Positions 2,930 through 61,802 of a stretch of DNA of 64,000 bases are shown piece by piece. Position 1 is the stretch's first letter. Each line of letters begins with the position of its first letter. The notes under the pieces are model-generated. The model was not told the origin of the DNA. It did no database searches and worked only from the letters and a program-made list of their open reading frames with translations. Position numbers and translations under genes: made by a program. Origin of the DNA: an uncultured Gammaproteobacteria bacterium (lineage in GTDB: Bacteria > Patescibacteriota > Microgenomatia > UBA12405); assembly GCA_964408995.1 (NCBI GenBank), contig CAYPBP010000002.1, forward strand, positions 32,491 through 96,490. Reading direction: 5' to 3'.

Positions 2930-3640
2930 TTTATACCTCAATTACCAACGGTAAAACCATTGGTTGGCGGCCAGTTTAAATTTTTGATATTGCAGATATG
3001 TAATAAAAATTGCAATAATAGTATGTGCTTTATATTCAAAACCCTAAAAATTTTGCAGATAAATTTAAAACAAAATCATCTAGATTGAATAACTGGGATT
3101 ATTCTAAGCCAGGTTTTTATTTCATTACGATAAAAACATTAAACGATAATAATTTTTTTGGAAAAATTATTAATGAAAAAATTGAATTATCGGCTATTGG
3201 TAAAATTGCCAATCAATATTTAATTGATATTTCTAAACATTTTTCAAATGTAATATTGGATGAATATACTATTATGCCAAATCATTTGCATATTCTATTC
3301 CTTGTAGAGACGCCAGATCTGGCGTCTCTACAAAATAATCAAAAAATCACGTTGCTAAATTATAGCCACAATAACCATCCAGATTTTTATAATCGATTGA
3401 ATCAAAAATCAAAACAATTAATTCCAAAAATTATTCAACAATATAAATCATCAGTAAAACGAATTTGTAATCAGAACAATTTATTTTTTGGTTGGCAAAA
3501 TCGTTACTATGATCAGATTATTAAATCTAAACTAGAATTAAATAATATACGTCAATATATTAAAAATAATCCTGTTAATTGGAAAAAATAATTTATACCT
3601 CAATTACCAACGGTAAAACCATTGGTTGACGGCCGGTTTT
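2928..3640 (+). mobile_element. IS200/IS605-like (RAYT-type) Y1-transposase element bracketed by a 50-bp direct duplication
   Basis: Direct repeats at 2928-2977 and 3590-3640 (taatttatacctcaattaccaacggtaaaaccattggttgRcggccRgttt, 2 mismatches). Each contains the imperfect palindrome ccaacggt/accattgg and flanks a HUH-Y transposase gene. Confidence 0.65.
3025..3591 (+). CDS. IS200-like / REP-associated tyrosine transposase (COG1943-type Y1 HUH transposase)
   Basis: GTG start. N-terminal W-x6-G-YF-T-T box (NNWDYSKPGFYFITIKT), HUH motif IMPNHLHILFLV, and C-terminal catalytic-Tyr box WQNRYYDQIIKSK...YIKNNPVNW matching the RAYT/TnpA_REP signature. Confidence 0.8.
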   Translation: MLYIQNPKNFADKFKTKSSRLNNWDYSKPGFYFITIKTLNDNNFFGKIINEKIELSAIGKIANQYLIDISKHFSNVILDEYTIMPNHLHILFLVETPDLASLQNNQKITLLNYSHNNHPDFYNRLNQKSKQLIPKIIQQYKSSVKRICNQNNLFFGWQNRYYDQIIKSKLELNNIRQYIKNNPVNWKK

Positions 3641-6032: not shown

Positions 6033-6065
6033 GTATATACGCCCCGTACCACGGGGCGTATATAC
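6033..6065 (-). terminator. Intrinsic terminator downstream of the Lon-like gene (repeat family E)
   Basis: 13-bp stem tatatacgcccc(g) / (c)ggggcgtatata with loop taccac, followed on the minus strand by A/T-rich sequence. A near-identical stem recurs at 52424-52455. Confidence 0.6.
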
Positions 6066-7723: not shown

Positions 7724-9928
7724 TTATCTTCGTGGGGGCCTAAAACCGCCATTAGAACGAGGTGGAGTGAAATTTCTAAAACCACCAGTGCGATTGTCTT
7801 GTTGATTATCAAAACCTTCTTCACGAGGTTGACCTGGATGAGCAGCTTTGAATTCTGGAGAAGATAATTTTATTTGATGATTATCATTGAACCCAGCGAT
7901 TTTGACGTTTAATCTGTCACCAACTTTAATAATTGAAGATGGATCGGATAAGAAACCTCCAGTCATTTCAGAGACATGTAATAAAGCTTCTCGGCCTGGT
8001 AAGAATTCAACAAAAGCACCAAATTGTTCGACTCGGGTAACAATACCTTCATAATCTTCACCAATTTGAACTTCTTTAATCATGGATTCGATTTCATAAG
8101 CAGCTTTGTCGATATCTTCCTTGCTTTGGGCAGAAATTGAAGCTTGACCATCATCATCGATATCAATTTGAACTCCATATTTTTGCATTAGGGCTTTGAT
8201 GGTTTTACCACCACTACCAATAACTTCACCGATTTTATCTTCTGGAAGACTAACCATGACAATTTTTGGAGCAAATTCTGACAACTCAGTTCGAGGAGCG
8301 GCTAAAACTGATTCCATTTTTTCTAAAATTTGAAGTCGAGCTTTAGTGCTGGCAGCAAAAGTATCAGTAATCATTTTTAAAGTGATGCCTTCTCTTTTGA
8401 TGTCTAATTGAATAGCAGTAATACCATCTTTGGTTCCAGTGATTTTGAAATCCATGTCACCAAAATGATCTTCGATGCCAGCAATGTCGGTTAATAAAAC
8501 ATAATCTTCATCAGTTTTGGCAACTAAGCCAATAGAAATTCCGGCAACTTTATCTTTAATTGGAACACCAGCGTCCATTAGAGACATGGTGGAACCACAA
8601 GTAGAAGCCATTGAAGAAGAACCATTTTGAGATAAAACTTCAGAAGTTAAAACAATAGTATAAGGAAAATCTTGTTCAGATGGAATAACAGGAAGTAGAG
8701 CTTTTTCTGCAAGAGCACCATGACCAACTTCTCTTCGACCTGGGCGACCAACTCGACCGGTTTGACCAGTAGAAAAAGGAGCAGCAGAATAATAGTGAAT
8801 ATATCTTTTGGTGGTTTCGCCACTAGAATCTTCTAAATATTGTTTATCTGCTAAAGGAGCAAGAGTAGTAACAGTGATAGCTTGAGTTAGACCTCTTTGG
8901 AAGAAAGCAGAACCATGAACGCATGGAAGAACTCCAGCTTCAACACCTAATTCTCTGACTTGGTCCATTTTTCTTTTGTCGTAACGATTACCTTTTAGAG
9001 TGTTTTCGCGGACATATTTTTTGATAATAGAATCAACTGCAGCAATGACATGGTTTTTGGAAACTTCTTCTGATTTAATTTTAGTTTCATAAGTTTCTAA
9101 AACTTGATCAATAATTTTTTCTTGACCAATCATATGAGCTCCATCAACACCAGCTTCTAAAAAGGCTTCAACTTGGGTTTTAATACTAGTTTCAATCTCA
9201 CTAATTAAAGTGGCAGATGGACCGGCTGGCTCATATTTAATTTTGGCTTTGCCACAAACTTTTGACCAGTCAGCAATTTCAATATTAATTTGATCACCAG
9301 TATTTTTGGCTAATTCAATAGCTTTTAGAGCAATATCGTTTTTGACAATATTAGCATCAGCTTCAATCATGTTTACACCAGAAGGGCCGGTGCAAACTAA
9401 TAAATCTAAATTAGAAGTTTCTAATTCTTTTTGACTTGGATTTAGAACTAATTGATCGTTGATTAAAGCAACACGAACAGCCGAAACTGGACCATTGAAA
9501 GGAATATCAGAAATAGCTAGTGCGGCCGAAGCGGCAGTGAAAGCTGGAATAATGACATCATTGGTCTTGTCATTACTTAAAACAGTAACGATGATTTGAA
9601 CTTCATTTAAAAAGTCTGAAGGGAATAAAGGTCTTAGAGATCGGTCGATAATTCGGCCAAAAAGAATGGCTGTATCAGATGGACCACCATCTCGTTTCAT
9701 CCATTTACTACCTTTGACGATACCACCAGCGTAAAGCTTGTCAACAAATTCGATGGATAAAGGAAAATAATCCTTTGATTCATCAGTTTTACCCATAATA
9801 ACGGTGGCTAAAACAGTAGTGTTGCCGTATTGAGCCACGACAGAGGCATTGGTTTGAGGAGCGAGCTTACCAGTAGATAAACTAATTTTTTTATCGCCCA
9901 CTAAAATATCTTTTGTATATGTTTCCAT
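7724..9928 (-). CDS. pnp: Polynucleotide phosphorylase
   Basis: 734 aa. Two RNase PH domains, KH (GEVIGSGGKTIKAL) and S1 (GIVTRVEQFGAFVEF) domains, plus an R/G-rich C-terminal tail. Confidence 0.92.
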   Translation of the reverse strand: METYTKDILVGDKKISLSTGKLAPQTNASVVAQYGNTTVLATVIMGKTDESKDYFPLSIEFVDKLYAGGIVKGSKWMKRDGGPSDTAILFGRIIDRSLRPLFPSDFLNEVQIIVTVLSNDKTNDVIIPAFTAASAALAISDIPFNGPVSAVRVALINDQLVLNPSQKELETSNLDLLVCTGPSGVNMIEADANIVKNDIALKAIELAKNTGDQINIEIADWSKVCGKAKIKYEPAGPSATLISEIETSIKTQVEAFLEAGVDGAHMIGQEKIIDQVLETYETKIKSEEVSKNHVIAAVDSIIKKYVRENTLKGNRYDKRKMDQVRELGVEAGVLPCVHGSAFFQRGLTQAITVTTLAPLADKQYLEDSSGETTKRYIHYYSAAPFSTGQTGRVGRPGRREVGHGALAEKALLPVIPSEQDFPYTIVLTSEVLSQNGSSSMASTCGSTMSLMDAGVPIKDKVAGISIGLVAKTDEDYVLLTDIAGIEDHFGDMDFKITGTKDGITAIQLDIKREGITLKMITDTFAASTKARLQILEKMESVLAAPRTELSEFAPKIVMVSLPEDKIGEVIGSGGKTIKALMQKYGVQIDIDDDGQASISAQSKEDIDKAAYEIESMIKEVQIGEDYEGIVTRVEQFGAFVEFLPGREALLHVSEMTGGFLSDPSSIIKVGDRLNVKIAGFNDNHQIKLSSPEFKAAHPGQPREEGFDNQQDNRTGGFRNFTPPRSNGGFRPPRR

Positions 9929-11213: not shown

Positions 11214-11280
11214 ATAGTTTATATATTAAATCTTTATTGATTAAATTCAATTGGATATTGAAAAAATATCAAAAAAAATC

Positions 11281-11346
11281 CCGCATTAACGGGACTAAAA
11301 CCCACTCCTCTCAGATTTCATCTGAGGGACCTCCCTTGACAAGGAG
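11281..11346. repeat. Structured GC-rich multi-hairpin element (repeat family D, copy 1); could serve as a 3'UTR or terminator
   Basis: Three consecutive hairpins: cccgcattaacggg, cctctcagatttcatctgaggg and cctcccttgacaaggagg. On the minus strand the last is followed by a U-run. A related copy lies at 57500-57548. Confidence 0.45.
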
Positions 11347-11359
11347 GCTTTAAATATTT

Positions 11360-11551
11360 TTATTGACCATTGTTAGATTCACGCATATTTTCGGTGTAAA
11401 CACAACCGTCACCATCGAGAACAATAACCTCTCCAGGTTCTAATTCTATTCTTTTTAAGATTTCATCCAAATTTACCCTTCCTTCTTTGTGTGGTGAATT
11501 AATATCCCCAATTTCTCCATTTGGTTTTATATCTTTTTCGATTAATGGCAT
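11360..11551 (-). CDS. Hypothetical small protein
   Basis: 63-aa ORF between the DHH-like gene and the hairpin element. No recognisable motif. Confidence 0.3.
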   Translation of the reverse strand: MPLIEKDIKPNGEIGDINSPHKEGRVNLDEILKRIELEPGEVIVLDGDGCVYTENMRESNNGQ

Positions 11552-12500: not shown

Positions 12501-13934
12501 CTACTTCGTGTTATAGGCTATTATAACATCATTTATCTTAAAATCAATATAGGGCTTGAAAGTCATGCCACATTCAGTTCCAGACTTGATTTTTTCGATA
12601 ATATTTTTAGCTTGGTGGATACCTTCAACCTTGGTATCTTTGATGATTTTGTCATCACGTTTTAAGTGAATTAAATCCCCTTTACAGATTTCTCCTTTAG
12701 TACATTGAACGCCAGAAATACGAACTTTATCGATTTTGAATTCAGCTTTAATCAAACCTTCTCCAAGAACAGTTTCGTCAATGGTAGGTTCTAAAAGATG
12801 TAAAACTTGGTTTTGAATATCTTCAATAATTTCATAAATAATTCTGGATTCAAAAATTCTGACCTTAGTATTCTCGGCTATTTGAGCAATGTGCTTTGGG
12901 GTAGAAACATTGAAGGCAAAAATTTGAGCTTTGGAAGCTTCGGCCAAGAAAACATCATTGTCAGAAACAGCACCAATCCCAGAAGAAATTACAATTACAT
13001 CTTCATTAAAGCTATTTTCTAGAGCTTCTAAAGTACCCCTAACATCGGCTTTTAAGATTACTTTTAACTTAGGATTTTCTTCGGTAGATTCGAGTAAAAC
13101 TCGTTGTTCTTTACTTGGTTGTAAACATTCAGATTTAGTAGAAATAACGAGGCTGCTAACTGGTGGAACTTTTTCAAAGCCTAAAACTTCAACTGGAGTG
13201 CTAGGACCAGCTTCTTTTAGAGAAACACCATTACAATCTATCATGGCTTTAACTTTACAAAGAATGTCTTCACAGTAAACAATGTCACCAACACGGAGAG
13301 TACCGTTGTTGACGATTAAGGAAGCCACTGGACCTCTAGCTTTATCGAGACGAGATTCGATAATAACAGCTTCAAAACAACCAGCTGGATCAGCTTGTAA
13401 CTCAAGAATTTCAGCATTTAATAAAATCATTTCTAAAAGATCTTCAATACCTTGACCAGTTTTGGCAGAAACTGGAAGAACAGCTAATTGACCACCATAT
13501 TCTTCGGGAGTATAGCCTAATTCAACTAATTGACCTTTAACTTTATCAGGAGAAGCATTTTCTAAATCAATTTTGTTCATGGCCACAATGAAAGGAATAT
13601 CGGTTTTTTTGATATGTTCGATACATTCTTTGGTTTGAGGCATGATGCCTTCGACAGCAGAAACAACTAAAATTATCATGTCGGTGGCTTTGGCACCACA
13701 AGCACGCATGTTTATAAAAGCAGCATGGCCGGGAGTATCGATAAAAGTGATTAGTTTAGCTTCGCCGTTTTTTTCAGTAACTTTAGCTTGATAAGCACCA
13801 ATGTGTTGAGTAATACCACCGGCTTCTTTTTTCCAGACATTAGTAGAACGAATCTTGTCTAAAAGAGAGGTTTTACCATGATCAATATGACCCATGACGG
13901 CAACGATCGGTGGACGAGTTAATTTATTAGTCAT
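12501..13934 (-). CDS. infB: Translation initiation factor IF-2 (short form: G domain plus C-terminal domains)
   Basis: [17 protein letters not shown] and NKID G-motifs. I place the start at the ATG (complement of 13932-13934), preceded by GGGGAG 9 nt upstream. The track's longer version begins with GTG inside a hairpin. Confidence 0.88.
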
Positions 13935-13939
13935 ATTTT

Positions 13940-13972
13940 CAATCTCCCCTAGCCCCTCTTTCACAAGAGGGG
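13940..13972. repeat. Family A GC-rich palindromic element, copy A1, in the nusA-infB intercistronic region
   Basis: caatctcccctagcccctctttcacaagagggg. The same ~35-nt motif occurs at 49741, 57555 and 61263. Confidence 0.7.
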
Positions 13973-38696: not shown

Positions 38697-40496
38697 TTAT
38701 TTAAACTTTTTGAAAATAATTACTTTGGGATGATCGTAGACTGAAAAAGCCTCTTCAGCAATATCATCACGAAGATAAACTCCAGGATAAAGACAAGTAT
38801 TATCAACTTCAAACCATTTATTTTTAGTTTGAGAATAGGGAAAGTTGGTTGGCCCAATATAAATACAATTTTTTAAAAATGGAAGGGATAGGCCAGGATA
38901 AGAGTTAAATTCAATTTCTTTTTTGAAATCTGATTTGCCGTCAAAAAGATCTTGATAATATTTGGTAGCAATTGGATATCTGTTTGGAACAAGAGGAATA
39001 GAAGACCAGAGACGATTGGAAGTAAGAAAAATATAATCAGTCTTTTTTAAGGTTGAATTTATTTTTTGCCATTTTTCAGAAGTATCCGGATCATAAAGAT
39101 GAAGATTTTGGTTTTGGTAAGGATTAAAAGATAGAGGTAAAGCATCATCCCAATATTCATTGGCGATAGTTGAGGATGATGGAATATTTTTATAAATCCA
39201 ATTTGAGGCTTGAACGCGAGAGTGAGGTCGAGTGTAGATTGATATAAAGATAATGGCATAAGAAAAATGAAAGAACAAAATAAGATAAAGTATTTTTTTT
39301 GATAAATTATTTTGAAAGATTAAAGTGACAATTATGGTTATAAATGGATATATGACCAAGAAATATCTCATAGTAGCAGTGAACTGATTGCCTTGTTGTA
39401 TGAAAAGAAAAATAGTCCAAAAAATACAAAGGAAAATTGTAAAATTTTTAGAATTTAAAAATATTTTCTTAAAAACCCTCTTGTTGTCCCGCAGATGCGG
39501 GACAACTTTCTCCCTTAAAAAAGGAGACGTTATTTTTTGATATATATATTTTATAAAAAACAAAAGAAAAACAAAAGATAAAGGTAAACCTAGTCCCCAT
39601 AAAACAATATTTTTTAGCGGATATAAAATTGGAGTTTTACTGAGCCATTGAATTTCTGGGGGATAAAAAACATCTTTATTAATTAAAATTGATTTTAAAT
39701 ATACAAGACTTTTTATAAAGTCTGGATTAATCTTAATTAAAGAAATGAAACTATATGGCTGAAAAATACGAAAAACAATAAAAGAAATAAAAAGAGATAT
39801 AAATATTTTTAAAAAGATAAGAGTCTTCTTTTTAAAAATTTGATAAATAAAAAACAATAAAATAACAGGAGAAAAAAGAAATGCAGAAATTTTACAAGTT
39901 AAACTTAGACCAAAGGTAATAGAAGCAAAAATTAAAAAAATATTCTTATTAGTTTTTAGCCAATAAGAAAAACAAACAAATGATAGTAATATAAAAAAAG
40001 TAAGAAAAGTATCAACGGCAAAAAAATGTGAAAGTTGAATTGGCAAAACAGTAAAAGCATAAAGTAAACTTGGTAAAAATAAGAAAAACTTTTTGTTTTT
40101 GGAAATGAATAATTTTGCTAGAAAATATAAACTGAAAATATTGAGGGAATCAAAAACAGATGATAAAGCGCGACCTAATAAATGAATTTTGTCATAGCCT
40201 TCTATATTAAAAATATTACCCAATGTTTTAACTAAAAATAATGGGAAGGTGCCATAAACAAAAAAATTAAATTGTTGATAATTAAACGGATTTAAGGGTG
40301 AAGATTTGGTATCAAAATATTGAACAATGGAACTGGGAAATTCAATCGTAGAAATTATCATGGTTAAAAATCTTTCGTCTGGATGAAGATGCTGATTTTG
40401 ATCCCAATTTAGTCCAAAGAGACGAATTGATAGAGCTAAACAAAAGATAATAAAAACTATAAAAAGATGATGATTAAATATTTTTTTGACAAACAT
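38697..40496 (-). CDS. Polytopic GT-C-fold membrane glycosyltransferase-like protein (paralog 2, 599 aa)
   Basis: N-terminal loop GLNWDQNQHLHPDERFL (a DE motif after TM1), many TM helices, and a C-terminal domain homologous to that of paralog 3. Contains the in-frame GC-rich hairpin at 39483-39506. Confidence 0.55.
   Translation of the reverse strand: MFVKKIFNHHLFIVFIIFCLALSIRLFGLNWDQNQHLHPDERFLTMIISTIEFPSSIVQYFDTKSSPLNPFNYQQFNFFVYGTFPLFLVKTLGNIFNIEGYDKIHLLGRALSSVFDSLNIFSLYFLAKLFISKNKKFFLFLPSLLYAFTVLPIQLSHFFAVDTFLTFFILLSFVCFSYWLKTNKNIFLIFASITFGLSLTCKISAFLFSPVILLFFIYQIFKKKTLIFLKIFISLFISFIVFRIFQPYSFISLIKINPDFIKSLVYLKSILINKDVFYPPEIQWLSKTPILYPLKNIVLWGLGLPLSFVFLLFFIKYIYQKITSPFLREKVVPHLRDNKRVFKKIFLNSKNFTIFLCIFWTIFLFIQQGNQFTATMRYFLVIYPFITIIVTLIFQNNLSKKILYLILFFHFSYAIIFISIYTRPHSRVQASNWIYKNIPSSSTIANEYWDDALPLSFNPYQNQNLHLYDPDTSEKWQKINSTLKKTDYIFLTSNRLWSSIPLVPNRYPIATKYYQDLFDGKSDFKKEIEFNSYPGLSLPFLKNCIYIGPTNFPYSQTKNKWFEVDNTCLYPGVYLRDDIAEEAFSVYDHPKVIIFKKFK
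39483..39529. repeat. GC-rich palindrome (family B, copy 1) in-frame within the GT-C gene
   Basis: gttgtcccgcagatgcgggacaac, a 10-bp stem, then tttctcccttaaaaaaggagacg. Encodes ...REKVVPHLRDNK... Related to gtcccgcagcggcgggac at 51477-51494. Confidence 0.6.
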
Positions 40497-43602: not shown

Positions 43603-44916
43603 TTATTTTTTCTTTAGAGTTAAGAATGAAAAAGAAACAAAAAGAAGAGATATTATGGATAATAAAATTGTTGGAACTAAGCTTCCAGTGACTGGAACTC
43701 CAGAACTAGTGCTTGGTAGAGTCGTAGTATTACGAGCAACTGCTGTAGGAATTGCGGTTGGAATTAGAGTTGGAACTACAGTTGGTTTAACTGTAGGAAT
43801 TGCGGTTGGAATTAGAGTTGGAGTTGGAGTAGTAGCTGATGGTGAAGCCGAATAAGATAATGGACTATCAGTGGCTAAAACAGTAAATTTTCTAGAAATA
43901 ATTTTTTCAATTCCATCTTGTATAACAGTAACTGTAATTGTGTGTTCACCTGGAGTTAAGTTTTTGGGTGGTGACCAATTCCAAGAACCATCGTCTTTTG
44001 TTTTAACTTCGCCAGTGTAAACAACTGGTGATTCAACTTTTATTTTAATTTTGGAATTGGCAGGACCAGTACCAAAAAAATCGGGCTTTTTGGTTGATAA
44101 AGATTCATTATCTTTTGGATTTAAAATATCTAGCTCTTTAGCTTTTGGCATTGGATCGATAACAGGTAAGGAACCAACATTAGATTCAGAATCAAAATTA
44201 ACAGAAGAAGCTGAAAATTCATTTTGACCTAAAATAATGTCTGGACTAGGATTATTTCTAGAGGTATTGGAACTGATTTGAGTTATATTTTTTTCTTTAT
44301 CTATAACAACAATTTCTTGAGGTGTATTTTCTTTTGGAGTGAATCTATCAGTTGTCTCTTCATTAAAACTATTAGCTAAAGAAATATTCCAATTACCTGA
44401 AGATGTTACTAGAGCAGATAAGGGTGAAGCACCTGGAATATTAATAAACACTATTACCTTACTAGCTGCTTTTAATTCTGGAGTAAAAACTCTTCCCCAA
44501 GCTAAATTAGAAGATGGGGCTAAAGAATTTGGTTTCTGGGCTGTTTTGAATTTGTACAAAGACTCATTGTATTTTTTACCATCACTAATGATTGTATATT
44601 TATATTCAGTTTCGTCTTCTAGGTTAGAGATATCAAAATAATGTATTTTTGTTTTTTCATTGTCATCATTAGTAACTCCATTTCTAATGTTTTGATTATT
44701 AATTGATAAATTAGACAAACATTCAGCTTCTGTTGTAAAAGAAATAGAAACTGAATTATTAGTTATATTTGTTATTTGAGTGTTTTTAGGGATACAGTCA
44801 CTACTAGCTTTGGAAACAACATTGGTGCCGTTATTGTTTAAAACAACACCGACATAAATTCCTCCTATTAAAATAATAAGACCTAAGATAGTAGGAATTC
44901 TTTTTTCTTTAAGCAT
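43603..44916 (-). CDS. Cell-surface protein with FN3/Ig-like domains, a P/T-rich stalk and a sortase-like C-terminal sorting signal
   Basis: N-terminal TM/signal, beta-rich repeats, (IPT/PTV) repeats, and a C-terminal ...LPSTSSGVPVTG + hydrophobic helix + KKK. Confidence 0.5.
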   Translation of the reverse strand: MLKEKRIPTILGLIILIGGIYVGVVLNNNGTNVVSKASSDCIPKNTQITNITNNSVSISFTTEAECLSNLSINNQNIRNGVTNDDNEKTKIHYFDISNLEDETEYKYTIISDGKKYNESLYKFKTAQKPNSLAPSSNLAWGRVFTPELKAASKVIVFINIPGASPLSALVTSSGNWNISLANSFNEETTDRFTPKENTPQEIVVIDKEKNITQISSNTSRNNPSPDIILGQNEFSASSVNFDSESNVGSLPVIDPMPKAKELDILNPKDNESLSTKKPDFFGTGPANSKIKIKVESPVVYTGEVKTKDDGSWNWSPPKNLTPGEHTITVTVIQDGIEKIISRKFTVLATDSPLSYSASPSATTPTPTLIPTAIPTVKPTVVPTLIPTAIPTAVARNTTTLPSTSSGVPVTGSLVPTILLSIISLLFVSFSFLTLKKK

Positions 44917-45369
44917 TTAAGGGTTTAAACCATATGATGTTTCATCATAATTTAATTCATCTGATGTTTCATCATAATTTAATTCATCTGATGTTTCATC
45001 ATAATTTAATTCATCTGATGTTTCATCATAATTTAATTCAATTAGTTCAACTGGGGTTGGTTCTGGAGTTGGTGTGGGTGTAGGAGTTGGTGTGGGTGTA
45101 GGAGTTGGATTGAAAACTGAAAAACTAAAATTTTCTTCTATATTTTTATTTCTTGATTCAATTTCGGACATTACAGATAAATCTAGATTCGGATTTATTT
45201 CTTTTAATAAAGAATTGTTTTCAACTTCTTTTTGAGGTTTTAGTAAGTTAAAATAACTTTTTTGGATTAAAAAAATAAAAACCGTCATCAAAGTAAGAAA
45301 AGAAATCAAAACAAAGTATAAAGAGAGTTTATTCTTTTTCATTATTGTCTGATAAAAAATATAAATCAT
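44917..45369 (-). CDS. Membrane-anchored repeat protein ((PT)n linker plus 4 repeats of ELNYDETSD)
   Basis: N-terminal TM, PTPTPTPTPTPTPEP, then four tandem nonapeptide repeats. Confidence 0.45.
   Translation of the reverse strand: MIYIFYQTIMKKNKLSLYFVLISFLTLMTVFIFLIQKSYFNLLKPQKEVENNSLLKEINPNLDLSVMSEIESRNKNIEENFSFSVFNPTPTPTPTPTPTPTPEPTPVELIELNYDETSDELNYDETSDELNYDETSDELNYDETSYGLNP
44932..45039. repeat. Tandem 27-bp coding repeat, 4 copies
   Basis: (c)atctgatgtttcatcataatttaattc, 4 copies, encoding ELNYDETSD on the minus strand. An adjacent 18-bp-period (PT) repeat lies at 45056-45112. Confidence 0.85.
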
Positions 45370-48645: not shown

Positions 48646-50079
48646 ATGAACTCAAAAAAATTTTTTATAACTACCCCAATTTATTACATTAACGATATTC
48701 CTCATATAGGACATACCTGTAGTACTGTGGCGGCGGATATTGTGGCCCGATTTCACAGAGCAAAAAATGAAGAAGTATTTTTTCTAACTGGCACTGATGA
48801 ACATGGACAAAAAGTAGCTGAACCAGCAATCAAAGCAAATCTAAATCCAAAAGAATATTGTGACAGTATTGCTCCCCGATTTGAAGAAGCTTGGAAGGCT
48901 TTAAATATTAGTCATGATTTTTTTATTAGAACAACCGATTCTAGACATGAAAAAATAGTCAATGAATTTTTACAAAAAATTTATGACAAGGGTGATGTTT
49001 ATAAAGCAAAATATGAAGGCTGGTATTGTGTCGGCTGTGAAAAGTTTTTAACTGAAGTGGAATTAGTTGACAAACATTGTTCTCTTCATCCACCAGAGAA
49101 AACTGTTTTTAAAAGTGAAGAAAATTGGTTTTTTAAATTAAGCAAATATATTCCTCAAATTATTAAATTAATTGAGGATGATAAAACTAATTATATTTTC
49201 CCTGAAGGAAAAAGATTAGAAATATTATCAAAACTTAAAAAAGAAGAAATTAGAGATATTTCAATTTCCAGAGAAAACGTGGAATGGGGCATTCCTACAC
49301 CTTGGGATTCTAAACAAACTGTCTATGTGTGGTTTGACGCTTTAATTAATTATTACAGTGCAACTCAATTTGTTGAAGGTAAAAAAGATTTTTGGCCAGC
49401 AAGTGTTCACTTATTAGCTAAAGATATTTTGTGGTTTCATACAGTTATTTGGCAAGCCATGCTTTTATCAGCTGACTTACCATTACCTATAAAAACTTTT
49501 ACTCATAGTTTTTATTTAATTGATGGTAATAAAATGTCAAAATCTTTGGGAAATGTAATTAGCCCAGGTCAATTAGTAGAAACTTTTGGAGTTGATGGAT
49601 CTAGGTATTTAATTGCCAGATCTTTTCCTGGAGAAAATGATAGTGATGTAGGAATTGAAAGATTTAAGGAAAAATATAATGCTGATTTAGCAAATAATTT
49701 AGGGAATTTAATTTCTAGAGTAGCAAAGTTAGCTGAAGGCCAATCTCAATCTTCCCCCGACCCCTTCTTTGACAAGACGGGGAGTTTTAATGAAGAATTT
49801 GAAAACTTAATTGAGAAATTTGATTTTAATCAGGCGATTGCTTTAGTTTTTGATAAATGGATTGATAGTTCAAATTTAAAATTGAATCAAACTACACCAT
49901 GGAAATTAGAAAAAGATAATACTGATAGAATTACAGTCTTAAATGAATGTATCAAAAACATTTTGAAAGCTGCTTTCCATTTGCAAATTTTTATGCCAGA
50001 AGTGGCCCAAAAAATTGAAAATTGTTTCAAAGATGAAGTTAAACCACTTGAGGAATCTTTATTTCCAAGAATAAAATAA
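48646..50079 (+). CDS. metG: Methionyl-tRNA synthetase (short form, no C-terminal tRNA-binding appendix)
   Basis: HIGH (PHIGHTCS) and KMSKS (KMSKSLGN). Contains the in-frame family A element at 49741-49783. Confidence 0.95.
   Translation: MNSKKFFITTPIYYINDIPHIGHTCSTVAADIVARFHRAKNEEVFFLTGTDEHGQKVAEPAIKANLNPKEYCDSIAPRFEEAWKALNISHDFFIRTTDSRHEKIVNEFLQKIYDKGDVYKAKYEGWYCVGCEKFLTEVELVDKHCSLHPPEKTVFKSEENWFFKLSKYIPQIIKLIEDDKTNYIFPEGKRLEILSKLKKEEIRDISISRENVEWGIPTPWDSKQTVYVWFDALINYYSATQFVEGKKDFWPASVHLLAKDILWFHTVIWQAMLLSADLPLPIKTFTHSFYLIDGNKMSKSLGNVISPGQLVETFGVDGSRYLIARSFPGENDSDVGIERFKEKYNADLANNLGNLISRVAKLAEGQSQSSPDPFFDKTGSFNEEFENLIEKFDFNQAIALVFDKWIDSSNLKLNQTTPWKLEKDNTDRITVLNECIKNILKAAFHLQIFMPEVAQKIENCFKDEVKPLEESLFPRIK
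49741..49783. repeat. Family A GC-rich palindromic element, copy A4, in-frame in metG
   Basis: caatctcaatcttcccccgaccccttctttgacaagacgggga, which encodes QSQSSPDPFFDKTG in the anticodon-binding domain. Confidence 0.65.
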
Positions 50080-51429: not shown

Positions 51430-51472
51430 AAGTTATTATAACAAATCCACCCCTACCCCTCCTTTGATCCTC

Positions 51473-51509
51473 CTTCGTCCCGCAGCGGCGGGACTACGGA
51501 CGGACGAAG
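51473..51509. repeat. GC-rich palindromic element (family B, copy 2) downstream of folD
   Basis: cttcgtcccgcagcggcgggactacggacggacgaag. Alternative nested stems, preceded by a C-rich tract. Confidence 0.55.
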
Positions 51510-51525
51510 CAATAGGGGGTAATTT

Positions 51526-52423: not shown

Positions 52424-52455
52424 TTTATTTAATTATATACGCCCCTCGGTGCGGG
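52424..52455 (-). terminator. Intrinsic terminator downstream of map (repeat family E, copy 2)
   Basis: tatatacgcccctcggtgcggggcgtatata, the same 12-bp stem as at 6033-6065. Confidence 0.6.
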
Positions 52456-52467
52456 GCGTATATATGT

Positions 52468-55112: not shown

Positions 55113-55699
55113 GTTTGACGAGTTTCAACTAAAGAAAAACCCTTAAACTCAAGAGCTTCTTGAAAACTCTTTGTAACTTCGGCGATATCTTTGACATCAA
55201 TTGATCTAACAAAAGTTTCAGGATTAATAGTTTTTAAAAGTTCGACGGCATTGATTGGTTGGTTAAGATTTCCAAGTGGTGTTGATTTCGTTTGTGAACC
55301 TTTTGGAGTGGTGGGGCTGGTTTGACCAGTGGTTAAACTGTAAAGAAAATTATTAGAGACAAAAACAGTAATATCGATATTGGCCCGAGCAGCAGTAATT
55401 AAATGATTTAGACCTTCACCATAAATACCACCATCTCCACCAATAGCACAAACAGTAAGATTGGGGTTGGCTATTTTTTCGCCCATAGCCATGGCAATAC
55501 AACGACCATGAAGAGTATGAACTCCGTAGGTTTTTAAAAAATCAGCCATATTACCAGCACAACCAATGTCATAGTTCATGACAAGATCAGATGTTTTGAT
55601 TTTAAGGTTATTGAAAGCAGTTTGAAGAGCAGCAAAAACTAAATAATTATGACAACCAGGACACCAAGTTGGAGCTATTTGGGATTTATAATTAATCAT
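55076..55699 (-). CDS. 2-oxoacid:ferredoxin oxidoreductase, beta (TPP-binding) subunit
   Basis: CPGCH, GDGG and TPP-binding fold motifs. Confidence 0.85.
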   Translation of the reverse strand: MINYKSQIAPTWCPGCHNYLVFAALQTAFNNLKIKTSDLVMNYDIGCAGNMADFLKTYGVHTLHGRCIAMAMGEKIANPNLTVCAIGGDGGIYGEGLNHLITAARANIDITVFVSNNFLYSLTTGQTSPTTPKGSQTKSTPLGNLNQPINAVELLKTINPETFVRSIDVKDIAEVTKSFQEALEFKGFSLVETRQTCIAFGKQLIVG

Positions 55700-57426
55700 A
55701 GTGTTAAACCCTCTGCCCTTCGGGCATCTCCCTTAACAGGGCGACTTTTTAATAATTTAATAATTTCTTCTGGAAAGAATGGACGACCATTGTTTTTGTT
55801 AATAATTTTGCTTGGACTAAATTCAAATTGAGACTTTAAAAGAGTGACTAATTGATTAGTTTCATTATTTTCGATGACAATAATTTTTTCAAAAGCATCA
55901 ATTATTTTTTTAATATCTGGATTGATTGGCCAAAGAGTTTTTATTTGTAAGAAAGCGAAGTCTTCTTTATTTTTTATTAATTTCAAAGCTTCTAAAATGG
56001 CACCTTTTGGAGAACCCCAACTAATAATTAATTTAGTGGCTTTTGAAGATCCAAATAAATTTGGCTTTGGACAAATTTTTAAAGCAGTTTTTAATTTTAA
56101 TAATCTTTTTTGAGACATTTTTTCGGAAAGAGAGGCATCTTCCGTTGAAAAACCAACTTCATCATGTTCGTAACTATTGGCTAAAAATTCACCATTTGGA
56201 GTACCTGGAAGAGTAAGAGGAGAAATACCGTCTTTGGTAAAGGCATATCGTTTGAAACTGTTTTCTTCAACTTCATTTAAGATTTTACCTTTGTCTATTT
56301 TTACTTCCATACTTGGAAAATATTTGGTACTAGCACTTGATTCGGCAACTAGTTTGTCACTTAAAACAATGACTGGTGTTTGAAGAATAGCCGCTAAATC
56401 TAAAGATTTGTGACCTAATTCAAAAGATTCATTAATATCACCTGGGGCGACAACAACTTTTGGGAATTCACCATGACCAGAATAAATGGCATGAAATAAA
56501 TCTCCTTGACTAGTCCAAGTGGGTAAGCCAGTGGCTGGACCTGGACGAGATACTAAATAATAGACCATACCGATTTCAGAAATGCCACAAAAACTAACAG
56601 CTTCGTTCATAAGGGCAAATCCACCACCTGAAGTGCCCGTAGCAGCTCTAGCACCAGCAAAAGCGGCACCAGCAGCCATGTTGGCAGAAGCAATCTCGTC
56701 TTCTGGATGATTTACGTTTAATTTAAATTCTGTTTGTTTACTAGCTAGGAAATGAAGAGCACCAGTGGCTGGAGTCATAGGATAGGCTGAATAAAAATTG
56801 CCACCACCTTTGATAAATCCCCAACCATAAGCTTCGTTACCATCATAAAAACCTTTTTTGGTTTTTTTAGTTGGTTTTTTTATTTTGATTTGATATTTAG
56901 AAAAATTTTCTTTGGCATAATTATAAGCAAGAGTAAAAGCAGCTAAATTTACATCAGCATGTTTTCCATAAGATTGAGAGATGTGATTTTTAGCTAAATC
57001 AATATCTAAATCATAAAGATAAGCAGCAACACCTAGACAAAGAGTATTCATAACCAAGGGATTGCCGGCTTGAGTAGCCATATCTTTTAGAGGTAGATTT
57101 AAGAAATTAGCTTTGCTTTTAACTTCGGTAAAGTCTTCATCAGAAAAAACTAAAGTCTTTTTAGTAAATTCGTCTTGATGTTGTTGCCAATGGTTTGGAT
57201 AAACTGAAAAGAATAAATCAACATTAAAGTGAGTTGAAAAAACTTCTTGATCAGAGAAAGTAATTTGATAGGTATTATGACCACCTCTAACCAAAGATGG
57301 ATATTCACTGTAATCAGATAGATGGAAACCATGATCAATTAAGAGTTTTGAAAAAATTTGACCAGCAGACTTGATTCCGGAACCAGCCGGACCAGAGATT
57401 TTGATGGTGGAAAAATTTAAGCTCAT
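55696..57426 (-). CDS. 2-oxoacid:ferredoxin oxidoreductase, fused gamma-alpha subunit
   Basis: N-terminal gamma-domain (GPAGSGIKSAGQIF) followed by the alpha-subunit core (YPMTPATG). A 4-bp overlap with the beta gene. Confidence 0.85.
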   Translation of the reverse strand: MSLNFSTIKISGPAGSGIKSAGQIFSKLLIDHGFHLSDYSEYPSLVRGGHNTYQITFSDQEVFSTHFNVDLFFSVYPNHWQQHQDEFTKKTLVFSDEDFTEVKSKANFLNLPLKDMATQAGNPLVMNTLCLGVAAYLYDLDIDLAKNHISQSYGKHADVNLAAFTLAYNYAKENFSKYQIKIKKPTKKTKKGFYDGNEAYGWGFIKGGGNFYSAYPMTPATGALHFLASKQTEFKLNVNHPEDEIASANMAAGAAFAGARAATGTSGGGFALMNEAVSFCGISEIGMVYYLVSRPGPATGLPTWTSQGDLFHAIYSGHGEFPKVVVAPGDINESFELGHKSLDLAAILQTPVIVLSDKLVAESSASTKYFPSMEVKIDKGKILNEVEENSFKRYAFTKDGISPLTLPGTPNGEFLANSYEHDEVGFSTEDASLSEKMSQKRLLKLKTALKICPKPNLFGSSKATKLIISWGSPKGAILEALKLIKNKEDFAFLQIKTLWPINPDIKKIIDAFEKIIVIENNETNQLVTLLKSQFEFSPSKIINKNNGRPFFPEEIIKLLKSRPVKGDARRAEGLTL

Positions 57427-57499
57427 CTGACTATTTTACTACATATTTGTTGAATTTTATAAAAAATGATTAAAACTCCCTTTGCCCTTAATAAAAACC

Positions 57500-57548
57500 C
57501 ACCTTCCCTGAAGGGCCCCTTCCTCCCTTGAAAAGGGAGGTCTATAAA
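57500..57548. repeat. Family D multi-hairpin element (copy 2) in the korA / DEAD-helicase divergent intergenic region
   Basis: aaaacccaccttccctgaagggccccttcctcccttgaaaagggagg, similar to 11300-11346. Confidence 0.5.
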
Positions 57549-57554
57549 GTTTTT

Positions 57555-57589
57555 CAATCTCCCCCTGCCCCCTCTTTCACAAGAGGGGG
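57555..57589. repeat. Family A element, copy A2 (intergenic, directly after the family D copy)
   Basis: caatctccccctgccccctctttcacaagaggggg. Confidence 0.7.
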
Positions 57590-57714
57590 TGAAAATAAAT
57601 TTTATATTTGCAATTGATGGTGATTATGATAGACTACAAGCTGATTTAGGCAAATTGGTGCATTTATACTTTGTGGGCACCGCAAGTTTTTAGGTTACGG
57701 CCGAAAAACAGTGT

Positions 57715-60599: not shown

Positions 60600-61802
60600 T
60601 CATTTTTTCTTCTCTTTTAAATATTTTTTATCTTTTAGTTTTTCAGGCAAAAGGCTTTCTTTTGTGTACATTTCATAGTCTTTGCCATAATCTAATTCTT
60701 TCATTAACTTAGTTTCGGCGTTGCGGAGATTAAGCGGTATTGGTAGATTACCAAACTGCTGAACATCGGCAAGAGCGGCTAAATAAGCATCATAAGCAGA
60801 ACGATCTTTAGGACTTTTGGCTAGATAAACAACTCCATGAGCTAGGTTTTCTCGACACTCTGGATAGCCAATTGTTTCAACAGCTCTGAAAACTTCATTG
60901 GCCATCATTAAAGCTGAAGAATTGGCAATACCAATATCTTCACTGGCAAAAATAACCATACGACGGGCAATAAATTTTGGGTCTTCGCCAGCATCAATCA
61001 TTCTGGCTAAATAATAAAGAGCAGCATCTGGATTACTGGCTCGCATAGATTTTATAAAAGCAGAAATGGTATTGAAGTGATCCTCCCCTTTTTTATCGAA
61101 ACGTAAAAAACTATTTTGAAGAGTTGATTTTAAGTTTTCTTTAGAAAGATCGTTATATAAAGTGAAAGCATTATCAATCATGGTTAGAGCCTGACGAGCA
61201 TCACCATTGGCCATTTGAATTAGCCATTCTTTGGCATCTTTTTTGATAGTTAATTTTTTATTCAATCTCCCTAAATCCCTCTTTGACAAGAGGGACTTAT
61301 TAATGACATCAATTGCTCTAGTGATTATTTTGTCAATATCTTCATCTGACAATTCTTTGAGGGTGAAAACTCGACAACGAGATAAGAGTGGAGAAATAAC
61401 TTCAAAACTGGGATTTTCGGTGGTGGCACCGATTAAAGTTAGAAGACCGGATTCTACATAGGGTAGCAAAAAATCTTGTTGAGCTTTATTAAAACGATGA
61501 ATTTCGTCTAAAAAAAGAATTACTCTTTGAATAGGTCTGGCTTGAGCAATAATTTTTTTAATATCGTCTTTGCTAGCAGAAACAGCTGATAATTCAAAAA
61601 TCTGGGCATCTGTTTCTTTGGCAATAATTTTGGCTAAAGTGGTTTTACCAACCCCTGGAGGACCCCAAAAAATCATAGAAAAGAATTGTTTGGATTCGAT
61701 TAATTTCCTTAAAGGTTTTCCCTCCCCAACTAAATGAGATTGACCAATAAATTCATCAAGGTTTTTAGGACGTAGAAGAGAGGCTAGCGGTTGAGTAAGC
61801 AT
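60600..61802 (-). CDS. rarA: Replication-associated recombination protein A (MgsA/RarA AAA+ ATPase)
   Basis: LRPKNLDEFIGQ, Walker A GPPGVGKTT, and the MgsA C-terminal helical domain. I place the start at MLTQPL. Contains the in-frame family A element. Confidence 0.9.
   Translation of the reverse strand: MLTQPLASLLRPKNLDEFIGQSHLVGEGKPLRKLIESKQFFSMIFWGPPGVGKTTLAKIIAKETDAQIFELSAVSASKDDIKKIIAQARPIQRVILFLDEIHRFNKAQQDFLLPYVESGLLTLIGATTENPSFEVISPLLSRCRVFTLKELSDEDIDKIITRAIDVINKSLLSKRDLGRLNKKLTIKKDAKEWLIQMANGDARQALTMIDNAFTLYNDLSKENLKSTLQNSFLRFDKKGEDHFNTISAFIKSMRASNPDAALYYLARMIDAGEDPKFIARRMVIFASEDIGIANSSALMMANEVFRAVETIGYPECRENLAHGVVYLAKSPKDRSAYDAYLAALADVQQFGNLPIPLNLRNAETKLMKELDYGKDYEMYTKESLLPEKLKDKKYLKEKKK
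61263..61295. repeat. Family A element, copy A3, in-frame in rarA
   Basis: caatctccctaaatccctctttgacaagaggga, which encodes (reverse strand) ...KSLLSKRDLGRL... in the linker between the AAA+ and C-terminal domains. Confidence 0.65.

Follow-up and report, generated by a model that had tools for sequence, protein, structure and literature searches.

Intrastrand-triplex repeats have been known since the 1990s, and neither their function nor their means of spread has been established. In Escherichia coli, one and the same repeat goes by three names, namely BoxC (Bergler 1992, as cited in Holder et al., PMC4666352), PIT, for potential intrastrand triplex (Hoyne, Maher et al. 2000), and TM_ECO (Holder et al. 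2015, NAR 43:10126, PMC4666352). Here we describe repeats of this design in a 64 kb stretch of contig CAYPBP010000002.1, referred to as the window, which belongs to a Candidatus Shapirobacteria/Woesebacteria-type genome (Microgenomates) of the candidate phyla radiation (CPR). The window is AT-rich (~31% GC) and its genes lie nearly all on the minus strand, which is also the strand on which the elements are read throughout. The original prediction had been that two of its intergenic regions share a composite element made of several hairpins. With a probability of about 0.72, we assign this element to a dispersed family of short G/C-rich DNA repeats of the class II intrastrand-triplex type, with a sub-type that carries a hairpin in its second loop.

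The TM_ECO consensus reads CCCTCNCCC N3-6 GGGNGAGGG N3 GGGNGAGGG, and its single strand is reported to adopt a stable triplex fold in vitro. Copies in E. coli K-12 are reportedly all intergenic, with 13 on the plus and 10 on the minus strand. TM loci are far more variable among E. coli strains than control spacers, and BoxC was found to have no association with mobile elements or gene function (PMC4666352). According to the account given there, the loops allowed in published searches were restricted to 1-6 nt (ITxF) or 0-10 nt (Hoyne). Of 5,426 complete E. coli genomes, 5,409 contain matches to a 36-nt query, CCCTCTCCC-TGT-GGGAGAGGG-TTA-GGGTGAGGG, with a median of 17 sites per genome.

The hairpin-in-loop copies of the window (family D) consist of a pyrimidine arm (Y), a short loop, a purine arm (R), a hairpin of free sequence and a third, reverse-Hoogsteen (RH) arm. 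The third arm mirrors the purine arm (G stands opposite G, and either A or T faces A) and is complementary to nothing. Because it is a mirror and not a complement, it has no rationale in Watson-Crick pairing and thus in RNA secondary structure. In copy c2 (57496-57540, minus strand), the Y arm CCTCCCTT (57540-57533) is followed by the loop TTC, the R arm AAGGGAGG (57529-57522), a second loop (57521-57504) with the small hairpin CCTTC-AGG-GAAGG, and the RH arm GGTGGGTT (57503-57496). All eight stem positions are paired and all eight triads are perfect. Copy c1 (11299-11347, minus strand) comprises the Y arm CCTCCTT (11347-11341), the loop GTCA (11340-11337), the R arm AGGGAGG (11336-11330), a second loop (11329-11307) formed by the hairpin CCCTCAGAT-GAA-ATCTGAGAGG, and the RH arm AGTGGGTT (11306-11299). 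Its stem and its third arm each have one imperfect position, making this copy slightly degenerate. Two further copies on the minus strand follow the same layout: c3 (39474-39527) reads TCTCCTT-TTTTA-AGGGAGA, hairpin GTCCCGC-ATCT-GCGGGAC, AGAGGGTT, and c4 (55707-55744) reads TCGCCCT-GTTA-AGGGAGA, hairpin TGCCC-GAA-GGGCA, AGAGGGTT, with one mismatch in its stem. The first loop measures 3-5 nt, the second 23 nt in c1, 18 nt in c2, 27 nt in c3 and 12 nt in c4. When folded as single-stranded DNA with Watson-Crick pairs only, the copies give two adjacent hairpins and an unpaired third arm, which in c1 is a free 3' tail (z = -2.35 for c1, -5.77 for c3). A partial and atypical copy, c5 (51443-51519, minus strand), was missed by the motif finder and read by eye from the sequence. 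Its R arm AAAGGAGGGG, a loop TA and the mirror arm GGGGTGGATTT are clear, and its poor pyrimidine arm is set apart by a long GTCCCGC..GCGGGAC hairpin.

Both of the segments singled out by the original prediction, which correspond to c1 and c2, were present as described, with common modules in a fixed order. The 9-mer AAAACCCAC, the complement of the third-arm segment of the minus-strand element, has two exact matches in the window (11297-11305 and 57494-57502), with an estimated ~0.4 expected from base composition. CCTCCCTTGA also has two (11330 and 57522), with an estimated ~0.03 expected, and sits 24 and 19 nt past AAAACCCAC, in the same order at both sites. Given these expectations, the joint arrangement is not due to chance. 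The short hairpin in between is of unrelated sequence at the two sites. As predicted, c2 is followed by a copy of the short-loop family A, at a gap of 16 nt. The proposed relation of the terminal hairpin of c1 to the family A hairpin held, but the hairpin had been misquoted and actually reads cctcccttgacaaggagg, with one G less; likewise, the predicted interval 11281-11346 includes the repeat but also covers part of a separate terminator hairpin at 11271-11296. A tRNA had been excluded, and a tRNA/tmRNA scan with ARAGORN indeed found none. The view of the element as modular, ordered multi-hairpin repeats akin to family A is borne out by a common three-arm design, and further copies turned up in this genome and in many others.

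Family A follows the same three-arm design with a second loop of 2-3 nt. Its copies, all on the minus strand, are A1 (13942-13972, CCCCTCTT-GTGA-AAGAGGGG-CTA-GGGGAGAT) in the nusA-infB spacer, A2 (57557-57589, CCCCCTCTT-GTGA-AAGAGGGGG-CA-GGGGGAGAT) next to c2, and A3 (61265-61295, TCCCTCTT-GTCA-AAGAGGGA-TTT-AGGGAGAT), which lies in frame within the RarA/MgsA gene. An additional short-loop copy, M (49749-49782, minus strand, CCCCGTCTT-GTCA-AAGAAGGGG-TCG-GGGGAAGAT), was revealed by the motif search and lies in frame, in antisense, within a MetRS-like gene of the plus strand (48646-50079). Across family A, the three arms change in concert, both in their count of G or C residues and in the terminal A/T.

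To quantify the three-arm grammar, a motif finder was run with 7-nt arms of at least 4 G, a first loop of 3-9 nt, a second loop of 1-45 nt and at most one mismatch per pairing. It returned 9 loci in the window, whereas 100 dinucleotide shuffles yielded 0.3 on average and never more than 2. A stricter search, allowing at most one mismatch overall, gave 7 loci versus 0.07 in shuffles. Seven of the 9 loci were on the minus strand; the two plus-strand matches were weak and represent the complement of the same hairpins. In total, the window holds nine elements (c1-c5, A1-A3 and M), with the G-rich strand always minus. Their density is ~0.11-0.14 per kb, as opposed to ~0.02 per kb in 628 kb of other CPR loci. 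On the minus strand, a mirror arm lies within 45 nt on the 3' side of all 8 G-rich purine/pyrimidine hairpins that the window contains.

The three arms covary. In c2 they read CCTCCCTT/AAGGGAGG/GGTGGGTT, in c3 and c4 TCTCC../AAGGGAGA/AGAGGGTT, in A1 CCCCTCTT/AAGAGGGG/GGGGAGAT, in A2 CCCCCTCTT/AAGAGGGGG/GGGGGAGAT and in A3 TCCCTCTT/AAGAGGGA/AGGGAGAT. In an all-against-all comparison of purine and third arms, the match of an element with its own arm was 1.00 in seven of eight elements and 0.86 in c1. Between different arm types the match ranged from 0.29 to 0.86, and each purine arm fitted best with its own third arm. A G-quadruplex (G4), in which the G runs of the purine and third arms would pair intramolecularly with the hairpin as a long loop, would fit c2, the commonest CPR short form GGGAGGGGTTAGGGGTGGG and forms of the kind GGGAGGG-[hairpin]-GGGTGGG, as these have four G3 tracts. 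However, c1, c3, c4 and all family A copies have two or three such tracts, and M fails as well. The C-rich arm, needless for a G4, is conserved and covaries, and the A/T positions follow a mirror rule that a G4 does not require. We consider this reading highly improbable, and as a general explanation we rejected it, since most copies do not have four G tracts.

By design, the layout is that of a purine-motif intrastrand triplex of class II and places the repeats in the BoxC/PIT/TM class. The order Y-R-RH on one strand is found in c1, c2, c3, c4, A1, A2, A3 and M, with stems that fall within the 6-15 nt and the single mismatch allowed for the class (c1 has 7 positions, one of them a G-T or bulge), a mirror third arm, over-representation and multiple copies. 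As in the E. coli repeats, a Y arm, short loop, R arm, loop and G-rich mirror arm follow each other on one strand, the G/C-rich arms are 7-9 nt long, and single A/T positions covary. The elements of both are multi-copy and over-represented, vary in presence among close relatives, are tied to variable regions and have no link to gene function. The E. coli sequence GGGAGAGGG-TTA-GGGTGAGGG closely parallels the CPR sequence GGGAGGGG-TTA-GGGGTGGG.

The departures from BoxC/PIT/TM are a hairpin-bearing second loop, other arm sequences, in-frame copies within genes and the CPR host. The second loop of family D, at 12-27 nt, exceeds the published limits, whereas family A copies stay within them; family D is thus a variant rather than a standard member, and its hairpin-in-loop form would have been undetectable by searches with loops of up to 6 or 10 nt. 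The arms CCTCCCTT/AAGGGAGG/GGTGGGTT and CCCCTCTT/AAGAGGGG/GGGGAGAT depart from the TM_ECO consensus. In contrast to TM_ECO, c3, M and A3 lie in frame within genes, c4 lies at the 3' end of korA, and all copies share one strand, in a host from the Shapirobacteria. We found no description of the hairpin-in-loop architecture in the searchable literature, and a literature search with the raw element sequences returned nothing relevant. No new mechanism is demonstrated here; the repeats give unusually clean evolutionary support for a three-arm constraint, in a lineage far from E. coli.

In single-stranded DNA, the Y and R arms would form a hairpin; its major groove could then accommodate the third arm, antiparallel to the purine arm, in G*G-C, A*A-T and T*A-T triads. 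Such a fold may arise transiently when DNA is single-stranded during replication, repair or transcription. It would keep the three arms matched and might make the elements prone to insertion and deletion, with the extra hairpin of the second loop as a structured connector. Individual copies may have been used secondarily, the third arm as a Shine-Dalgarno sequence and the hairpins as intercistronic structures at korA/korB. The assignment to an intrastrand-triplex family draws on the three-arm grammar with its covariation, over-representation, gain and loss of copies, a rearrangement junction, tolerance in frame and occurrence across phyla, all of which are observed.

The occurrence across phyla was assessed by scanning 185,579 species genomes with a hairpin-only pattern (CCTCC-N0-1-TTKTCAAGGGAGG), which gave at least 119 loci. 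Among 135 usable matches listed, the sequence GG[AT]GGG[AT][AT] was present on the correct 3' side in 98 and on the wrong side in 5. This comparison of sides is not circular, because the third arm is absent from the search pattern. In the matches listed, the hairpin is followed by a few bases (GTTAGG, GTAGG or GAAGG) or by an arbitrary hairpin, and then by GGGTGGGTT(T) or GGAGGGTT. Their lineages include Shapirobacteria, Parcubacteria, Peribacteria, Gastranaerophilales and Saprospiraceae and, in the opposite orientation, Alphaproteobacteria and Ruminococcaceae/Oscillospiraceae. Seventy-five copies among the matches listed have a second loop of at least 10 nt, of which 58 reach a folding z < -1.5 (mean z -2.9). 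Within this loop, the hairpin sequences vary among CPR bacteria, Alphaproteobacteria and Ruminococcaceae as well as from copy to copy, and one locus (L109) holds a near-copy of c2. Also among the matches listed, AT-rich metagenome-assembled genomes labelled Gammaproteobacteria (L016, L042, L066, L072, L075 and L077) carry many copies almost identical to the CPR form. Either these bins are mis-assigned or the element is common to very distant lineages. A hairpin-in-second-loop architecture is thereby revealed as widespread.

Copies in other genomes were found in either orientation with respect to flanking genes, and inside open reading frames (ORFs) in both orientations. Because copy orientation varies in this way, a uniform transcript-level role is disfavoured. 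The original prediction had offered a small structured RNA, a 3' untranslated region (3'UTR) element or a terminator. In its broadest form, this would be an RNA-level element that stabilises transcripts from a 3'UTR or intercistronic position, as REP sequences do, or that serves as terminator or regulatory leader, its G-rich tail being a single-stranded binding site for ribosomes or proteins. Eight of the nine window copies are sense to local genes, c1 lies in a 3'UTR adjoining a terminator, c4 has been kept in the korA-korB interval while its hairpin underwent compensatory changes, and three copies put GGAGGG, AGAGGG or GGGGAG 7-9 nt before a start codon. On the other hand, M runs antisense to the gene that hosts it, RNA pairing does not account for the mirror symmetry of the third arm, and Rfam covariance models gave no hit at gathering score anywhere in the window and just noise far below threshold when both loci were screened at E<=10. 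Purine-motif triplexes are stated not to form in RNA, and in earlier work, as far as Holder et al. report it, PIT elements had no promoter or terminator activity in E. coli (PMC4666352). Taken as a general explanation, the proposal of an RNA element is not supported, in view of the occurrence of ORF copies in both orientations, the mirror arm and the lack of Rfam matches, and we regard an RNA-level element as unlikely.

Like intrinsic terminators, the elements have a hairpin rich in G/C against an AT-rich genomic background and are followed by T residues. Unlike in terminators, the T run of c1-c4 comes after the third arm, at a distance of at least 8-10 nt from the nearest hairpin, so that in c1-c3 it does not directly follow a hairpin. 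A terminator scan flagged a hairpin at 11296-11277 and left the c1 hairpins unflagged, and c2 contains just a weak 5-pair site with TGGGTTTTTA; an intrinsic terminator was therefore rejected as an explanation of the elements.

At the korA/korB junction, the closest relative (L007), whose KorA is 92% identical, reads ttaaaaTAAaattATG, while the window carries ~40 nt inserted (AGTCGCCCTGTTAAGGGAGATGCCCGAAGGGCAGAGGGTT), which is c4. Through this insertion, the korA ORF is extended by a tail (..SRPVKGDARRAEGLTL) and AGAGGG is placed 9 nt before the korB ATG; relatives with an empty site have no recognisable Shine-Dalgarno sequence at korB. Among 120 homologues, the KorA tail is patchy, being present in P0002, P0003 (81%), P0026 (75%), P0032/34/36 (65-66%) and P0084/91/94 (62-63%) and missing from most others. 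As DNA, the c4-type element is nearly invariant in L008 (4526-4565), L215 (~1810-1850) and L216 (~9420-9465). It is thus present where KorA is just 65-81% identical and absent in the closer L006 and L007, which reflects either repeated loss or repeated acquisition at one site. The copy is identical to L008 at 39 of 40 nt, compared with 77-85% in the flanks. The second hairpin of the c4 orthologues keeps its pairing while its sequence changes (TGCCC/GGGCA to TGTCC/GGACA to TGTTC/GGATA); in the alignment, 98% of cells are paired versus at most 56% in slid controls, and two pairs are altered on both sides. The third arm is invariant in five genomes, and the c4 of L005 has decayed at about the rate of its flanks. 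At the junction without the element, L006 carries a 14-nt tandem duplication (gacattagaaatta x2, L006:11685-11712).

Judging by their position, three third arms appear to have been co-opted to provide the following gene with its Shine-Dalgarno sequence: AGAGGG at 9 nt from the ATG of korB (c4, 55699-55715), GGGGAG 9 nt before the infB ATG at 13934 (A1, 13934-13950) and GGAGGG 7 nt before the ATG of mscL (L214:112-129). The listed infB ORF 12501-13964, with a GTG start (MKEGLGEIEN..), is most likely over-extended through A1, the true start being ATG 13934. One could hence conceive of a portable ribosome-binding module, which spreads or is retained because it exposes a strong Shine-Dalgarno sequence behind hairpins in an AT-rich genome. 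The spacing of 7-9 nt in these three copies, the empty-site relatives and the invariant third arm of c4 would agree with it. A start codon, however, follows just three of ten copies; none follows c1, c2 or A2, and c3, M and A3 are intragenic. In addition, GGTGGG and GGGGAGAT tails are suboptimal Shine-Dalgarno sequences, and neither the pyrimidine arm nor the mirror rule is explained. Such a module therefore seems quite improbable. A resemblance to anti-Shine-Dalgarno pairing with the 16S 3' end was partial and without support.

All copies of this genome share one strand. A tenth copy, ~6.8 kb past the end of the window (L214:74-120), also has its G-rich strand on what is the minus strand of the window, so that ten of ten copies agree, including M in antisense to its host gene (two-sided binomial ~0.002). 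The GC skew of the window is ambiguous as to leading or lagging strand, and replication polarity is one possibility for the placement. Transposons that move as single-stranded DNA and use the lagging-strand template show one-strand bias. This placement would also be in line with a mobile element of the REP or miniature inverted-repeat (MITE) type, in which a transposase (RAYT or another HUH enzyme) would recognise the hairpins and the mirror arm would be incidental. The copies are polymorphic in their presence, with clean boundaries and without obvious duplication of the target, and they combine with other hairpin modules in a mosaic; both observations point the same way. Yet a transposase was not found, the 5' end shows no conserved tetranucleotide of the GTAG type, and the second hairpin differs wholly between copies in one genome, unlike in copy-and-paste families. 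BoxC, as mentioned, was not associated with mobile elements (Holder et al., PMC4666352). We deem mobility of this type very unlikely as the explanation, while noting that it is compatible with, and not exclusive of, an intrastrand-triplex family.

Several other repeat systems were compared. With the REP/BIME repeats of Enterobacteria, the elements share short G/C-rich hairpins in intergenic or intercistronic positions, mosaic modules, and the possibility that some copies influence mRNA or translation of adjoining genes. They differ in their homopurine/homopyrimidine arms and mirror third arm, of which REPs have none, and in the copies inside ORFs. As to the hallmarks of REP/BIME (an imperfect palindrome of ~35 nt, a conserved GTAG-type 5' tetranucleotide and association with a RAYT transposase), no GTAG-type motif was found at the element ends and no RAYT association was seen within the 64-kb window. 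Rickettsia palindromic elements are likewise short palindromic repeats that are tolerated in frame in a small AT-rich genome and add peptide segments, but they are 100-150 nt long, Rickettsia-specific, of unrelated sequence and without a triplex-type mirror arm. Integron attC sites are comparable by analogy only: they too combine a single-strand fold and conserved outer segments with a central part that is free in sequence and keeps its pairing. The repeats described here, in contrast, have no R''/L''-L'/R' core (GTTRRRY does not fit), no cassettes and no integrase, and their outer parts follow a mirror rule instead of an inverted-repeat rule. Resemblances to KOPS (GGGNAGGG) or Chi-like polar motifs, and of the ATTGAAA end of family A to CRISPR repeat ends, were partial and without support.

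A number of observations weigh against an intrastrand-triplex family. Compensatory changes in DNA palindromes can arise without selection, via template-switch correction. The c1 copy falls short of the full pattern, as its stem contains one wobble or bulge and its arms give 7 triads out of 8. The first c4 hairpin of L005 is still paired but no longer matches the third arm; selection at korA/korB may for this reason act on the hairpins and the Shine-Dalgarno sequence and not on a triplex. In the same vein, the conservation of c4 over 65-81% KorA identity, together with its compensatory changes, points to a local function, which could be at the RNA level. The cross-phylum similarity is partly imposed by the search pattern, and neither a mobilising enzyme nor a target-site signature was found. 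Finally, triplex formation in bacterial cells is a prediction from sequence here and unproven in vivo even for BoxC: for the E. coli relative, duplex DNA was without a triplex signal, and dimethyl sulfate (DMS) footprinting in vivo showed no protection (PMC4666352).

A more far-reaching idea is that the hairpin-in-loop triplex motif constitutes a cross-phylum, structure-defined class of DNA elements, whose three-strand fold is kept by selection. It is suggested by the three-way covariation of the arms and by compensatory changes that occurred despite amino-acid changes in essential genes, and we regard it as doubtful but worth stating. If true, intramolecular DNA triplexes would really form and matter in bacterial cells. 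They might then serve as the recognition structure of a machinery acting on single-stranded DNA, in replication or mobilisation, which would set the one-strand placement. Irrespective of this, the elements can occupy essential genes in frame and donate ribosome-binding sites, and they mark sites of insertion, deletion and rearrangement in reduced CPR genomes. They also yield spurious ORF extensions and small ORFs, as in the GTG-extended infB, the KorA tail and a 44-aa ORF (57423-57557), and should be recognised by annotators of CPR genomes.

Gain and loss were also evident at other copies. The region of c1 is variable: downstream of a DHH gene, the InfB-based loci of relatives are non-syntenic and carry other genes, so that c1 has no orthologous site. 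Its upstream neighbour, a 63-aa ORF (11360-11551, minus strand), was found among 5.8 billion proteins in identical-strain copies only, and is either an orphan gene or not a real gene. The spacers of the identical-strain contigs carrying it are 100% identical and hence uninformative on c1. Directly 3' of c1 and outside the repeat lies the terminator-like hairpin 11271-11296 (minus strand, AGTCCCGTTAATGCGGGATT + T8), with 8 pairs and a loop of 4, which is probably the terminator of the upstream minus-strand genes. Copy c1 is slightly decayed, lies just upstream of an ordinary terminator and probably has no function of its own.

The site of c2 and A2 (57427-57600) is a synteny breakpoint. In relatives, Nramp, in some together with GT2 and another gene, separates the DEAD helicase gene from korA. 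Both the Nramp and GT2 junction genes are absent from the whole window, where the junction consists almost wholly of c2 and A2. The 44-aa ORF that runs across c2 is probably spurious.

Within genes, c3 corresponds to an in-frame insert of 18 aa (TSPFLREKVVPHLRDNKRV) in a membrane glycosyltransferase (GT39/PMT_2), present in homologues of at least 79% identity and absent from those at 53-70%. In L212, its hairpin changed from GTCCCGC/GCGGGAC to CTCCCGC/GCGGGAG, a compensatory exchange (G..C to C..G) that altered two amino acids. M encodes SPDPFFDKTGS in the window and in L006, and L005 and L008 have a shorter, unrelated segment. A3 accounts for ~8 extra residues relative to E. coli RarA (PDB 3PVS), and A1 is missing at the nusA-infB junction of L131-L133 (InfB identity 84-86%).

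The hairpin GTCCCGC-NNNN-GCGGGAC recurs as a loop hairpin in c3 (39486-39503), in c5 (51470-51490) and at L005:371-391, and a related TCCCG..CGGGA hairpin is the terminator beside c1. Hairpins of the GTCCCGC type may be an independent module that combines with triplex arms.

A leader of ~115 nt upstream of the DEAD-box helicase gene (57600-57714, plus strand; L005:1655-1790; L006:6725-6850) is highly conserved among relatives. It holds a terminator-like hairpin, TTTGTGGGCACCGCAAG+TTTTT (57670-57686), and may be a regulatory 5'UTR or an attenuator. A second, unrelated palindrome family (TATATACGCCCC-loop-GGGGCGTATATA) of terminator-like appearance is intergenic at 6034-6064 and 52434-52464. A 51-nt direct repeat (96% identical; 2927-2977 and 3589-3639) flanks ORF 3025-3591. 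In addition, tandem 27-nt repeats and 12-nt-periodic repeats of the GGAGTTGG type (44924-45058 and 43743-43834) lie in minus-strand ORFs, where they encode repetitive protein.

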